Below are positions 30,001-36,000 of a stretch of DNA of 64,000 nucleotides, piece after piece. Every line of letters starts with the position of its first letter. Position 1 is the first letter of the stretch. The position numbers are program-made. The stretch lies in assembly GCF_057098645.1 (NCBI RefSeq), contig NZ_CM169472.1; one strand, 5' to 3'.

Positions 30001-33000
30001 GCCTTCGCCGCGCTCAGGGATCCGCTCTCCAGGGCTTACTACACCCGCAAAATGAGTCAGGGAAAACGACACAATCAGGCGCTTATCGCCCTGGCGAGAC
30101 GACGCTGCGACGTTCTGTTCGCCATGATGCGCGACGGGACTTTTTATACCCCGCAGGCGTCATAACATGCTTGACAACTTAATAGGGGCACCCCCCGGGG
30201 CGGGTCACAGTCCGATGATATCGTCTGCCCTGCCATGACCTCCGGACACCTCCGGCAGCGTCGGGTCCGGCATACCACCCGCCGCTTCACGAGCAGACTT
30301 TTGTCGATGGCATTCGGTACAGAGCGTCCAGAGATTCGTCTCCTCATTACCACCACCGAACTGAAGTGCAATTCGGTGATCGAGTTCACTGTCACAGAGG
30401 TCAACCACACGACCACAGAGACAGCACTGCCCGGCATCCCTGAGCCAGATATGACGCTTGAGGGAAACACGTGCACTGCCACTGACACGACGCTGTTCAC
30501 CCTTCAGAATATTCACCCGCCGGGTGTTCAGAGTTTTGATTCTGCCCGGTAACGTACGAAGCACAGCCATGTAAAATCCTCGCCATATAGCTTGTCACCA
30601 GAGGAAAGAAAATGTCATCGAAAAACCGGCCCCGCAGAACAACAACCCGCAACATCCGATTTCCAAACCAGATGATTGAACAAATTAACATCGCTCTTGA
30701 CCAGAAAGGTTCAGAAAATTTTTCTGCGTGGGTCATTGAATCTTGCCGCCGGGAGCTGGCAGCAGACATAAAATATGCCCGTCAGTTGACTATAAAAAAG
30801 AATGATACACAGTATGCTCTGCGATGGCTGTTCATATAACTATTTCTTTATATTGCTGAATTTATAAAAACTCACAGACATTAGCTGTATTAATTCCGAA
30901 TTGAAATAATCAGCCATATAGAATAAAAATAAAGCATAACAATAATAATCTTCTACCCAATCAGTACATTACTGCTGTGACTCCAACACGGCAGTTTTTT
31001 TATTGAACAGATTCCAGTTTCTTCCACCATCGCACCGGACGGGCGACCATGAGGGGAGAACGCCGCGCTCCGTTTACGCGGTAAACCCCGGTGTGTATCG
31101 TTTTTGATTATCCCCGCACACTCTCGCAGAGGAGTCTCCCTGTCGGGCTGCGGTCTCTGTTAATGCAGGAATACGGCGACGATACGGCGCATCAGCAAAA
31201 CTTAGTTCAGGCACTGAGTGCGGATATAGTCCTGTGCCCCTTCCAGCTGCTTCTGCATTGTCATCAACCGTTCTCTGAGGATGAAATAATCCCGTTCAGC
31301 GGTGTCTGCCAGTCGGGGGCCGGTTGCATTATCCACGCCGGAGGTGCCGGTGGCTTCACGCACGGTACCGGAGCAGGTGGCGTTGATCCGCAGGCGCTTA
31401 CGACCAGCGGCAACATCAGCACGCAGAGTTTCATTTTCAGCTCTCGCATCGGCTAACTCCCTCGAGTATTTTGCATCGAGCGCAGCAACATCACGCTGGC
31501 GCACCTGCATGTCAGTAATGGTGGCATTCGCCTGTTCCAGCTCTCTGGCTTTTTTATCGCGCTGCGCTTTGTAGGTGAGCGCGTTGTCACGGTAATGGTT
31601 TGTTGCCAGCCACAGCGCACCACAGCCAACCGCCAGGACAATAATCACCACACACAGAACACGGTTCATCTCTCTTTCACCCCACCAGTCCCGATAACGT
31701 CAGGACTCGCCAGGCGGTGGAAAAGAAAATGGCAACCAGCATGACTAAAAATGAAATGCCGACAAGTACACAGAGGCTCTTCACCAGCGTTATGAGTTTA
31801 TCTGATATCATTAGCCACCCCATCAATCCGCCTTTGTTATTTTCCCTTTGCCTGTATCAGCCAGGACAAAATCAATCAGCATATTCGCTTCATTTACCAG
31901 CGTACGGATTTTTGATACATGCGCGGCTTTAACCTGTTTCCACTCATTCAGCCCGGTAGCAAACACACTGGCAATGTTTTTATCCCGTTTCATGTCAGCA
32001 CAAGCCTGGTTGAGTTCTTCCATCACGCTCATTTTACGGGGATTAACGACAAAACCCTTCGTCCAGTACTCGTAAAGAACATCGTCGCACTCTTCCTGAT
32101 ACCGGATGACCTTATCGCGGATTTCGGGTTTTACTTTGTTGGGATTAATGGTTTGTAGCCAGCCGGCAAGTTTTCGAAGTGGCATGGACACCATATTGCG
32201 TTGTTTCCCATCCTCAGCAACCATAACGATTTCCGTTATAGTTGACGCAAAACGCTGTCTTAACTTAGCCAACTGTGATTGCCAGGCCAGCCCCATCCCC
32301 GCAACGACAGGTTTCATGGGAACGTATGGTTCGCCATTATGGTTAACTACATAAAGAGAGTTGCCGTGAAACGGCACGGCCATCATATTCATCGGTTATT
32401 TCCTTTTAGTGATGAACCTTGTCTCACAGGAATCCAGCCCACAGAAAGGCACCGACAGCCAAACCGGTATCCTCAAGGGTCATCCTGAAAGGTTCTGTGT
32501 TGTGAGATGCGCGTGAGATGCGCAGAAATGACAAAGGCATCATTACGGTGCCTGAGTGTTAAACAACTGTTTTGACTTTATTCACTTACATTTTGCCAAT
32601 TTGCAGGATTTCGTGTTATCCATCCATGTAAGCAAACCTCATTTTTCAGCAAAATATTCTGCTTATCTGTCGATTCCCCAGCACGCCAGCGCGCTCTCCT
32701 GGTCACGACGGGATACCTGACCGTAACAGTTATTTGAGCGAATACGGCAGTCCCTGCCACCGTCCTTAATCCACCAGCGAATAGCTTCGCAGGCACCTTT
32801 TCGATCTCCTGCATTAATCCGTCTGTAAAACGTCGACGGGAAACACTTACCGGGGCCAATGTTGTACGGACAGAATGACGCAATCCCCGCTTTCTGGGGT
32901 TCGGTCAGTGGCACTCTGAACCGCCCCGGGTTTCCTGGAGAGTATTTTATCTGTGAACTCAGGCTGCCAGATCATTATTTCCGATGGAAGCATAATAAGC

Positions 33001-36000
33001 TTTTTCTGCTTCTGCCGGAGGAATATGGCCCAGCCTTTCCAGCAATCGTCGATTGTTATACCAGTCCACCCACGTGAGTGTGGCCAGTTCCACTTCTGCA
33101 CGGTTTTTCCAGCTCTTACGGTGTATTACCTCCGCTTTGTAAAGACCATTGATGCTCTCCGCCATCGCGTTGTCATACGAGTCGCCAGTACTCCCTGTTG
33201 ATGCCAGTAATCCGGCTTCCTTAAGCCGCTGCGTGTAGGCCAGCGATACATACTGAGAACCTTTATCACTGTGATGGATTGTGCCGGACGGCCGACGGGC
33301 CCACAACGCCTGCTCCAGTGCATCCAGCACGAATGTTGTTTCCATGGATGATGAGACCTGCCATCCCACGATGTATCCGGCGAACACATCAATGATGAAC
33401 GCCACATAAACGAAGCCCCGCCATGTGCTGACGTAAGTAAAATCAGCCACCCACAGCTGGTCAGGTCGTTCTGCCACGAACTGACGGTTTACGCGGTCGC
33501 CTGCGGCAACGGCTTTCCGGCTGATGGTCGTACGGACCTTTTTACCCCGGAGAACACCGGCAAGTCCCATAACTGCCATGAGACGTGCCACAGTGCATCT
33601 GGCCACTCTGATACCTTCCCGTAACAACTGACGCCAGACTTTACGCACACCGTATACCTGGTGATTTTCATCGTATACGCGCTGTATCTCTTTCTTCAGC
33701 CAGTCATCGTGCTGCGCACGGGCACTGCGTTTATCCGGATGATGTCGCTGTTGCTGACAGTGGTAATACGTTGACGGGGCAATATGCAGTTCGCTGCATA
33801 GCGGTCCGACCCCGTACTGCTCACGCAGCTTATCCAGCAGTGGCATCATTTTTTCCAGAGGCGGTCGAACTCCGCCTTCGCAAAATAAGCGGAAGCCTGG
33901 CGAAGGATATCGTTACTGCGGCGCAGTTCACGATTTTCACGCTCCAGCTCTTTCAGACGCTGACGTTCAGCGGTGGTGAGCCCGCCATCACCGCCCCCGG
34001 TATCCCGCTCATGCTGGCGAACCCAGACACGCAGAGTCTCCGGCGTACAGCCAATCTTTGGAGCAATGGAACAAATTGTCGCCCATTGTGAGTCATATTC
34101 ATCCTGACTTTCCAGAACCATACGAATCGCCCGCTGACGGACTTCGGGGGAAAAACGAGTATTTTTAGTCATCCTGTTTACCTCTTTCTCAGGGAGTTTA
34201 GTCTCCAGGATTTCCGGGGCGGTTCACTCTGATGTTTTTCTCCACCCATGCCAGCGCCTTATCACGCTCAATGGCGTTAACCCGGTCGCATTTTTCCTTC
34301 GACAGCTTCATGCCAGGAATAACAGGCTTACCATCCACCCGGGTGGCTCCACGGCAGATGGTCCAGATACCCGCACCATCACGGTATGCTGTGGTGTGGT
34401 TACCTTCCTTTTCATCCAGAAACTGGTCGAGGATTTCAGGCGCAGACGCCCCTGCACCAATCAGCGCCAGAACGGCAGCCGACAGGCCGTATCTGATTTT
34501 TGCGTTCATGGATATTTATCAGGGTTTATCGATTTCAAATCCCTGGATATGTTAAGTCTTCAGGCCAGCGGTGGAGTCTTCAGAGAACCCGTAATTATTC
34601 CCGGTAGTTTTCCTCTGTAGGTTATCAACACATCCTGCGCCTCTAAAATTACGGGACGCTTTTCCGGTAACGGACCATCCCCTTCACATAACCCGGCAGC
34701 AACATCCATGAAAAACTGCTTCGCCTGCTTTTTCGCCTCAGCTTCGTAAAACTCCAGCGTGGCACCTTCAGTACGGTCAAGACTAATCGCCACATCTGGC
34801 AACAACAGTGACGGATACCCACCAATTTCCAGTGCCACAGTAACAGTAATCTTATCCGGGTAATTATTTATCCCTTTAACAACCAGTTCGTATTTTTTCT
34901 TCATCACTTTACTCTCCCCGCGCCGCCTTACGCCGGTCTTCTTTAATCTTGAAATACAGGTTCGTCAGATATGTCAGCAGCCCAAACAGCAGACTCCCCA
35001 GCACGCCTATCGCCACCCACTGGGACGGAGAGACTTTGTCCAGCAGCTGCAGTAACCAGTATCCCGTCCCCACCGCTGACGTGGTGTATGACACACCCGT
35101 TGTGATTTTTTCCATCTGGTACATACCCCGTCTCCCGTTATCCGGAAGCTGACAACAATAAAAAAGCCACCAGTTAACTACTGATGGCTCTGATAACTCA
35201 TGCAGGCGTCTCAGACGACCCACTGACACTACCGGTGAGTTTAACGATACCTTCCATTTGACTGGCTCACTTTTTATGATGATGCCGGTGCATTTATCTC
35301 CAGCACCAGACTTTCTATCTCAACGCCATACGCTGCATTTTTTGTAACATCCGTCAGCGTCAGCGCATTCAGTCCCAGTGTCATACTGTCTTTTATAACC
35401 TGGAATGCCGGGCCAGCCACTCCATTCAGTTTCGGAGTAACCGTGGCACTGCCGGCGGTGAACACCAGCTCCAGCGTCTGCCAGTCGTTACCGTAATCGC
35501 CGAACTCCCCCAGCTTCGTGTTTCCGGCTTTCCTGTGATGCATCAGATTCACTCTGCCGTCAGTGGTCTGAGTGAAGTACGACATCAGGAACGGATTACC
35601 GGTACCCGTCATCGCCACACCATCAGGAACGGGAGCATCCGTATACAGATAAATCCCCAGCCCGAACTGATTGTTGGTCAGTGCGCCTGACAGGCGGAAC
35701 TTACAGGTCAGTCTGCCGCCCTGTGTCAGCAGGGTAATTGCGTCATCCACCGGATGCGTCAGGGACCAGGTTTTATTGCTCTGCTTGGTGATCTTAAATA
35801 CACCATCTGACAACTGAATTCCGCCATCCTTAATGCTCCAGCCCTGCGCAGCAGCCTCTCCGGCTGCCGGCAGCAGGGAGATTGTGCGAACGGACGTATC
35901 TGCAGACGGACCCGATGGCGTGTTGCCGCCGGGCGAGGGTTTGATTTCCGGTGCCTTACCACTGATGAAGGCTGAGGTGCGCCCGGCTGCGTTCAGAATA

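Follow-up and report, generated by a model that had tools for sequence, protein, structure and literature searches.

An apparently mosaic IS629-type element interrupts the SAR endolysin gene of a decayed lambdoid prophage in Escherichia coli O145:H28

The endolysin gene R of a lambdoid prophage flanked by ssrA and ypjA on the E. coli O145:H28 chromosome has no intact reading frame. It is a pseudogene of the SAR (signal-anchor-release) endolysin family, split by an IS629-type insertion sequence. Very probably, an IS629 isoform with a mosaic sequence inserted recently into R of a prophage that was already decayed, and the resulting pseudogenisation was neutral. This reading would explain the split lysozyme pseudogene. 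All positions refer to the window, that is, the whole stretch of 64,000 nucleotides that was analysed.

An IS629-type insertion splits the R gene

The IS629-type terminal repeat pattern was found at six places in the window, where none is expected by chance, and these define three elements (copies 1 to 3). Copy 2 lies on the minus strand at 32917..34226 (1310 bp, IRL at 34226 and IRR at 32917). It is directly abutted at both ends by the trinucleotide CTC, at 32914..32916 on the IRR side (GAG on the gene strand) and at 34227..34229 on the IRL side (CTC as read on the plus strand). An earlier note on this DNA had placed here, at 32914-34229, an IS629-type insertion with an intact CTC target duplication; the insertion and its duplication are confirmed, and the interval corresponds to copy 2 plus both copies of the trinucleotide.

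R is carried by the minus strand. Its 5′ fragment (34227..34509) comprises codons 1–94 plus one nucleotide and includes the SAR domain together with E35, D44 and T50. The 3′ fragment (32663..32913) starts with the remainder of codon 95, ends with the stop and encodes the C-terminal lobe. The frame is thus broken after codon 94 by 1313 bp, and the 5′ fragment reads on into the IS, where it stops as a 103-aa product. Judging from the lysozyme fold, this truncated product, of which 95 residues belong to R, would be inactive.

The gene was restored in silico by excision of 32917-34229, i.e. the element plus one CTC. Joining 34509..34230 to 32916..32663 gave a 534-nt ORF with the in-frame junction ...VEKNIRV|PLTEPQKAG..., as the earlier note had proposed. 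This ORF shows no nucleotide difference from the intact lysozyme gene (WP_000992148.1) of the orthologous prophage in E. coli O145 RM11626-C1, nor from the orthologous gene in O145 RM8988-C1. Identity to the empty-site allele is also 100% across the flanks (30192-36010, 5.8 kb around the IS), which argues that the insertion is recent and took place here.

The restored protein aligns with phage lysozymes. It matches Pfam Phage_lysozyme PF00959 (1.5e-24, 87.1 bits for a cut-off of 22.3) and, in the PDB, 7M5I, 3HDE (6.5e-18) and 4ZPU (1.3e-17). 3HDE is the phage 21 SAR endolysin and 4ZPU is RrrD. In the alignment with 3HDE, residues E35, D44 and T50, with the spacing Glu-8aa-Asp-5aa-Thr, face their counterparts, which form the R21 catalytic triad. 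Gly, Ala and Ser make up 69% of residues 8–23 (GLSAAVLALIGAGASA), whose Kyte-Doolittle mean is 1.9 and which fall on the SAR segment when aligned with 3HDE; this stretch is the predicted N-terminal, weakly hydrophobic signal-anchor-release segment. The Pfam match, the 3HDE alignment and the Gly/Ala/Ser-rich N-terminus together uphold the identification of the split gene as a SAR-type lysozyme.

Copy 2 looks transposition-competent

Imperfect terminal repeats of about 25 bp, starting TGAACCGCCCCGG, are present at both ends of copy 2. The IRL (34202..34226, minus strand) reads TGAACCGCCCCGGAAATCCTGGAGA and has an A at position 14, where copies 1 and 3 have a G. In the IRR (32917..32941, plus strand), the terminal 25 nt are the same as in copies 1 and 3.

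Both reading frames are intact and lie on the minus strand. orfA (33846..34172) encodes 108 aa with an HTH_Tnp_1 domain, and orfB (32959..33849), in the −1 frame relative to orfA, encodes 296 aa with an rve integrase core. Profile searches of the transposase returned rve (1.5e-27), HTH_21 and HTH_Tnp_1, and the DDE residues of OrfB (D136, D195 and E231, in DD(36)E spacing) are all present. The orfA/orfB overlap reads TGGAAAAAATGATG (TGG AAA AAA TGA / ATG ATG) and carries an A6 slippery run at 33849..33854 on the minus strand. This run is the predicted site of a programmed −1 frameshift, and PGAP calls a ‘programmed frameshift’ at the same site in homologous copies. The run is embedded in a full-length match to the ALIL frameshift-stimulating pseudoknot (Rfam RF01497; 33775..33891, minus strand; 120.2 bits for a gathering score of 50). 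Since orfA and orfB, the A6 site, the pseudoknot and the DDE residues are all in place, copy 2 looks transposition-competent from its sequence features.

With NCBIfam, copy 2 scored 367 bits as an IS3 family transposase (cut-off 160), and the typing of both IS types stops at this level, ‘IS3 family transposase’. The name IS629 as used here denotes an architecture and 96–98% identity to copies in E. coli assigned by RefSeq to the IS3 or IS1203 family; for instance, an O157 copy annotated as IS1203 family shows 96.3% identity to copy 2, and other IS3-family copies of E. coli show 98.2–98.4%.

Copy 2 appears to be a block mosaic of two IS629 types

Alignment of the three copies gave 33 differences over 1310 nt between copy 2 and copies 1 and 3 (97.5% identity). 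These correspond to nine amino-acid changes and one IRL base (position 14, G>A), and 21 of the 30 coding differences are silent. The changes are V16I and G24D in OrfA, and R47H, K64Q, Q144R, R164Q, V191I, T276I and D292N in OrfB. Copy 2 thus departs from the other two in OrfA, in OrfB and in one inverted repeat, as previously claimed.

The number of nucleotide differences depends on the type compared: 33 from the resident O145 type (copies 1 and 3), 23 from the copy of O103 12009, 21 from that of E105 and 48 from the O157 IS1203-type copy. Fifty sites are informative, and along them copy 2 agrees in turn with the O103-like and the resident types, in successive blocks of 9, 10, 2, 10 and 19 sites. 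Such a pattern makes five runs for a null mean of 25 (sd 3.3), and a number this low did not arise once in 100,000 shuffles. No difference separates copy 2 from the resident type across 141-486 and 698-797, or from O103 12009 across 818-1310. By this criterion copy 2 appears to be a recombinant in which blocks of the resident O145 type are joined to O103-like ones. The E105 and O103 12009 copies are themselves mosaics relative to each other. The ‘distinct lineage’ of the earlier note is therefore right as to divergence and too simple as to origin.

Copies 1 and 3 are associated with deletions

Copy 1, of the resident O145 type (5507..6816, plus strand), truncates the J gene and replaces 3.8 kb. 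Copy 3 (43886..45195, minus strand), identical to copy 1, lies where the prophage borders on ypjA. Both are without target duplication. An inversion between the two was considered as the cause of the missing duplications and rejected, as the cross-matched flanks disagree (GGT/ACA and GAG/CGT). Comparison with the collinear RM8988-C1 locus showed flanking deletions instead. The IS excision enhancer IEE promotes both IS629 excision and adjacent deletions (PMC9943667). No iee gene was found within the 64-kb window.

The R insertion affects a prophage that was probably already dead

The lysis genes are all on the minus strand. The class II holin (pinholin) gene S, of the phage 21 type, is at 34909..35124 (71 aa; PF04971, 3.5e-32). 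The mechanical ORF extends to 35229, and annotation of the orthologue gives a class II holin gene of 216 nt. S is followed by a DUF1327/YdfR gene (34560..34907), between S and R, by a P22_AR_N antirepressor-like gene (31823..32392), between R and Rz, and by an intact Rz spanin gene (Phage_lysis, 31202..31669). Cassettes of the same holin-DUF1327-lysozyme-Ant-Rz make-up that encode the exact 177-aa R protein are widespread. With the pinholin and Rz genes intact and R interrupted, we infer that the cassette can no longer degrade murein by itself. At least one further E. coli genome (CP018252.2) encodes two copies of the R protein; since second copies exist elsewhere, another prophage could supply R in trans. 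A scan for promoters and terminators around the insertion gave nothing usable.

The int gene, the immunity region and the replication region are missing in sister strains whose R is still intact. From this distribution, the prophage would have been dead before R was hit. It carries five other IS elements, including an IS21-family element (15745-18382) that interrupts the tape measure gene 27 codons from its start, and copy 1, which cuts off J at 6817 with the 3.8-kb deletion described above. The remnant also carries nleG7. According to the earlier note, the R insertion and the lesions in the tape measure gene and J jointly deprive the prophage of lysis and tail assembly. The two tail lesions are real and the inference is reasonable; the statement needs qualifying, as the prophage already lacked its early region and R may be provided in trans. 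Because the early region was already lost and five other IS elements are present, the R insertion is best read as neutral, strain-specific decay.

Neither the junction nor the mosaic was found in other genomes

We searched 5,426 complete E. coli genomes, with about 31,000 IS629-like places, and 72,556 plasmids. No full-length match to copy 2 above 98.4% was found in either set, the best being 98.4% on a chromosome and 98.2% on a plasmid. A second identical mosaic copy was likewise absent from both sets and from the 64 kb of the source genome. Exact look-up of the 103-aa product and of copy 2 OrfB (as 296 and 295 aa) returned no record, for which start-codon calling may be partly responsible. 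The insertion junction is absent from all 5,426 complete genomes. In at least 19 of these, a gene of this R family has an IS629-type IRL end within its 5′ half or next to it; several sites are involved, none of them at this position. Two other R insertions with a clear target duplication (O157 17B6-2 and O145 RM9872) carry other IS subtypes.

Alternative explanations

Two other accounts bear on the sequence of the element. The insertion could be real and the inner sequence of copy 2 a chimera, introduced during assembly or polishing from reads of different IS629 subtypes. The absence of the mosaic from the searched collection, the lack of a record for the exact OrfB and block sizes of about 100–500 bp, which is the scale of read length, are all compatible with such an artefact. 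Yet both ORFs are intact and most coding differences are silent. In addition, two of the three bases of copy 2 that match neither parent (243C and 517A) are found in natural copies, E105 among them, copies 1 and 3 of the same assembly are clean, and the mutual mosaicism of E105 and O103 12009 indicates that reticulation is the norm in this family. We consider an artefact unlikely. It is very improbable that copy 2 represents instead a separately diverged, non-recombinant lineage which entered the genome independently. The 2.5% divergence in both ORFs and in the IRL would fit, as would the coexistence in one genome of the three published IS629 subtypes, 4–5% apart (PMC3271280), but the strong clustering of the differences into five runs does not. 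Recombination between two IS629 types is thus retained as the preferred reading of copy 2.

Other accounts bear on how, and why, R was lost. Homologous recombination could have imported an R allele already disrupted in another lambdoid prophage, without any transposition here. STEC genomes contain several near-identical lysis cassettes, and other prophages and strains do have IS629-type elements in their lysozyme genes. Every one of those cases is nevertheless at a different position, the two with a clear duplication carry other subtypes, the junction is absent from the genome collection, and the sequence around the IS is that of the resident empty allele; import is therefore extremely unlikely. 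Selection might also have favoured knockout of lysis in effector-carrying prophage remnants, giving recurrent IS629 insertions in R genes. The 19 or more genomes with insertions at several sites, as well as the nleG7 carried by this remnant, point in that direction. Little lysis risk was left, however, once int, immunity and replication had been lost while R was still intact in the sister strains, and the five other IS elements of the prophage lie in unrelated genes. IS629 is moreover generally biased to prophages and has no sequence-specific target (PMC3271280), and, as a rough estimate, insertion at random into some 5 kb of R per STEC genome would by itself yield about 19 genomes. Adaptive loss of R is accordingly highly doubtful. 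We give scarcely more credence to a broader proposal, that recurrent, independent IS629 hits on STEC endolysin genes, this one included, reflect selection against lysis in cargo-carrying remnants instead of neutral decay, or that copy 2 is direct evidence of in-cell gene conversion making new active isoforms, or both.

Discussion

The preferred scenario is recent transposition into a dead prophage. A transposition-competent IS629 isoform would have entered codon 95 of R, doubling the 3-bp target CTC. Its mosaic sequence would come from gene conversion between the IS629 type resident in O145:H28 and an O103-like one. IS3 family elements transpose by copy-out-paste-in via a circular intermediate, and by analogy the same route is assumed here. 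The insertion would part the SAR anchor and E35/D44/T50 from the C-terminal lobe, leaving a presumably inactive 103-aa product and depriving the cassette of its own murein degradation. In a prophage already without integration, immunity and replication functions, this strain-specific loss would be neutral. Precise excision of IS629 could in principle reverse the lesion; IEE-mediated IS excision is described as having restored lacZ in STEC O121:H19 (PMC9397093).

The IS629 subtypes, their prophage bias and IEE-driven excision and deletion have already been published. The present case is ordinary decay of a kind well described in Shiga-toxin E. coli, with little import beyond annotation and strain typing, and it neither opens nor settles a long-standing question. 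It offers a clean example of stepwise IS-driven decay of a lambdoid prophage, with the empty site kept in sister strains, and one more strain-specific IS629 site usable for IS-printing or outbreak typing of O145:H28. The mosaic is a small data point on recombination among IS629 subtypes.

Comparison with known systems

The restored R shares with R21 of phage 21 (PDB 3HDE/3HDF) and RrrD of DLP12 (4ZPU) the PF00959 T4-lysozyme-like fold family, a Gly/Ala-rich SAR segment and the aligned triad. As with the S21 pinholin, a P21-type holin gene lies upstream. R is however a Stx-phage/933W-type allele of 177 aa, distant in sequence from R21 (E 6.5e-18), and in contrast to phage 21, a DUF1327 gene separates S from R, an antirepressor-like gene separates R from Rz, and R is interrupted.

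With IS629/IS1203/IS3411 (IS3 family, enterohaemorrhagic E. coli), copy 2 has in common the 1310-bp length, the repeats, the 3-bp duplication, a 108-aa orfA in frame 0 and a 296-aa orfB in frame −1, the A6 run with ALIL and a DD(36)E transposase. Its prophage location is also that of 62% of the IS629 copies in O157:H7, which lie within prophages or prophage-like elements (PMC3271280). It differs by a mosaic not found elsewhere in the genomes and plasmids searched and by an insertion site shared with no complete genome of the collection. Small structural polymorphisms involving IS629 and IEE have been described in EHEC (Ooka 2009 and Kusumoto 2011, as cited in PMC9943667). The window shares with them strain-specific, gene-inactivating IS629 insertions and, in copies 1 and 3, elements without target duplication beside deletions, whereas copy 2 is a simple insertion without adjacent deletion.

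IS629 copy 2 in the endolysin gene R

Scanning the window for the IS629-type terminal repeat gave six sites, where none is expected by chance. These sites delimit three elements: copy 1 (5507-6816, + strand), copy 2 (32917-34226, - strand) and copy 3 (43886-45195, - strand). Copy 2, which splits the lysozyme gene R, is exactly 1310 bp long and is abutted at both ends by CTC (32914-32916 and 34227-34229). The span 32914-34229 therefore consists of copy 2 between the two repeats of a 3-bp target duplication (TSD), which is intact as the earlier note had claimed. Both reading frames are open: orfA (33846-34172, 108 aa, HTH_Tnp_1) and orfB (32959-33849, 296 aa, rve/HTH_21), overlapping at TGG AAA AAA TGA / ATG ATG. 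The ALIL frameshift pseudoknot is full length (33775-33891; Rfam 120 bits, gathering score 50), D136, D195 and E231 are present with spacings of 59 and 36 residues, and the OrfA+OrfB fusion scores 367 bits against NCBIfam 'IS3 family transposase'. Judging from these sequence features, copy 2 looks transposition-capable.

In silico excision of 32917-34229 fuses 34509..34230 with 32916..32663 and yields an ORF of 534 nt (177 aa), rejoined in frame at ...VEKNIRV|PLTEPQKAG... as had been proposed. The restored product aligns with phage lysozymes: Pfam Phage_lysozyme (1.5e-24), PDB 3HDE (6.5e-18) and PDB 4ZPU (1.3e-17), the latter two of which we take to be the phage 21 SAR endolysin and RrrD, respectively. 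E35, D44 and T50 are present, aligned with 3HDE. Gly/Ala/Ser make up 69% of residues 8-23 (GLSAAVLALIGAGASA), a segment of weak hydrophobicity; such a composition is what a signal-anchor-release domain would have, consistent with the SAR-type assignment made previously. In the interrupted gene, the 5′ fragment runs into the left inverted repeat (IRL), giving a 103-aa product that lacks the entire C-terminal lobe and, from the lysozyme fold, is probably inactive.

The neighbours of R, an Rz gene (31202-31669), an antirepressor-like gene (31823-32392), a DUF1327 gene (34560-34907) and a P21-type holin gene (34909-35124), form the usual lysis cassette arrangement. The identical 177-aa protein is very widespread in the same cassette (2,027 index blocks), and at least one genome (CP018252.2) carries two exact copies.

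Empty site and related insertions

With smpB and ssrA (tmRNA, 746-1108) at the left end of the window and ypjA on the right, the prophage is bounded by ssrA and ypjA. Over the right-hand 18.8 kb, which includes ypjA, gabDTP and neighbouring genes, the window matches E. coli O145:H28 chromosomes at 100% identity. We compared the region with 5,426 complete E. coli genomes, a collection that excludes the source genome, where the top hit for the prophage extends over 81% of the query. In two O145 strains, RM11626-C1 and RM8988-C1 (the sister strains), the same prophage is present and its lysozyme gene (WP_000992148.1) is intact. Restored R shows 0 nucleotide differences from this gene and, with the IS excluded, window positions 30192-36010 agree with the sister allele at 100% identity. 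It follows that the insertion is recent, occurred in place and was followed by no later mutations. The copy 2/R junction was found in none of the 5,426 genomes searched.

In 19 of these genomes, O157:H7 17B6-2 among them, IS629-type elements lie within or next to lysozyme genes, at other positions and of other IS subtypes. The O145 RM9872 group has a copy of the type resident in O145 strains, with AGG as TSD. In E. coli 2013C-4830, an IS629-type copy truncates the lysozyme gene and everything up to hokD is deleted. In the Stx1 prophage of O103:H2 12009, the copy stands just upstream of the intact lysozyme gene of the Stx1a phage, in the place where the holin would be.

Mosaic structure of copy 2

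No difference separates copy 1 from copy 3 (100% identity), and at most 1-2 nt separate them from copies in other O145 strains; the pair thus stands for the resident O145 type. Against this pair, copy 2 has 33 differing positions (97.5% identity). Of these, 30 fall in coding sequence, where they alter two OrfA residues (V16I, G24D) and seven in OrfB, and the other three are non-coding, among them IRL position 14 (G>A); the differences in OrfA, OrfB and one inverted repeat reported earlier are thus borne out. When copy 2 was compared with both the resident type and the O103:H2 12009 copy, its positions 14-126, 567 and 653, and 818-1283 matched the O103-like type, and positions 141-486 and 698-797 the resident type. 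Only 3 bases differ from both parents, and the natural copy E105 shares two of them. In a runs test, the 50 informative sites fall into 5 runs, against a null mean of 25.0 (sd 3.3); 0 of 100,000 shuffles reached so low a count. From this clustering, copy 2 is a recombinant mosaic: its divergence from copies 1 and 3 stands, but not its description as a cleanly distinct lineage.

It is improbable that assembly or polishing created part of this pattern, since both ORFs remain intact, the majority of the changes are silent and natural IS629 copies elsewhere are likewise mosaics. Over its full length, copy 2 reaches at most 98.4% identity at any of ~31,000 places in E. coli genomes and 98.2% on any of 72,556 plasmids, and an exact-sequence look-up found no record of its OrfB. 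The element and the gene are both well known; what is new is the strain-specific insertion and the mosaic isoform.

Decay of the prophage

Comparison with the collinear RM8988-C1 locus gave six IS elements in the window. IS2 (1943-3272), just inside the prophage end adjoining ssrA, is missing in other O145 strains. Absent from the sister strains are an IS21-family element (15745-18382; IstA-like 548 aa, IstB-like 332 aa, repeated terminal motifs) located 27 codons into the tape measure gene, and an IS110-family element (28743-30191; 398-aa DEDD transposase) between the small terminase and HNH endonuclease genes. IS629 copy 1 stands in for 3.8 kb, with loss of lom and the tail fibre genes and truncation of the tail gene J by its C-terminal 674 codons. 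Copy 3, at the ypjA boundary, is oriented opposite to the IS found there in the sister strains and is flanked by additional deletions, 885 bp on one side and 436 bp on the other. No TSD flanks copy 1 or copy 3. The two are in inverted orientation relative to each other, and a simple inversion between them was rejected because it leaves their flanks unexplained. These TSD-less, deletion-flanked copies look like products of excision and deletion of the type attributed to the IS-excision enhancer (IEE). Copy 2, a plain insertion, could in principle be excised precisely.

The prophage contains no integrase, repressor or replication genes and stops after the nin region, and this early-region loss is shared by the sister strains, where R is intact. 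Even with R intact, the remnant could not have sustained an autonomous lytic cycle. For this reason neutral decay, rather than the disarming of the phage, is the best reading of the R insertion. Also real are the lesions in the tape measure gene and J, to which the earlier note had attributed the disabling of the prophage together with that of R. The observation stands confirmed and its interpretation is supported, with two refinements, the mosaicism of copy 2 and the prior inactivity of the prophage.

In RM8988-C1 (12227-13537 of comparison locus L015), a different IS3-family element, ~95% identical to IS629, lies in ant of the same prophage; the window has no insertion at the corresponding position (about 10663-10665). 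The same prophage is decayed by its own IS set in each strain.

Two further features were observed. The sRNA genes AgvB (anti-GcvB) and STnc100 lie back to back (37275-37527) between Q and a nanS-p-like esterase gene, an interval that is presumably the stx position in Stx phages; no stx genes are present in the prophage within the window. In the portal/protease region, a 162-bp tandem repeat (21899-22503) forms three overlapping 281-nt copies, 89-92% identical, and RefSeq annotates the sister-strain counterpart as a frameshifted, incomplete portal gene.

Comparison with published IS629 biology

No other IS is as abundant in O145:H28 as IS629 (PMC3893438). In O157:H7, 62% of its copies are in prophages or prophage-like elements, its target is not sequence-specific, and three subtypes, 4-5% apart, can coexist in one genome (PMC3271280). 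IEE promotes IS629 excision and IS-adjacent deletions ranging from a few nucleotides up to >40 kb (PMC9943667), and a report on STEC O121:H19 describes restoration of lacZ by IEE-mediated IS excision (PMC9397093). All observations made here fit this published biology.
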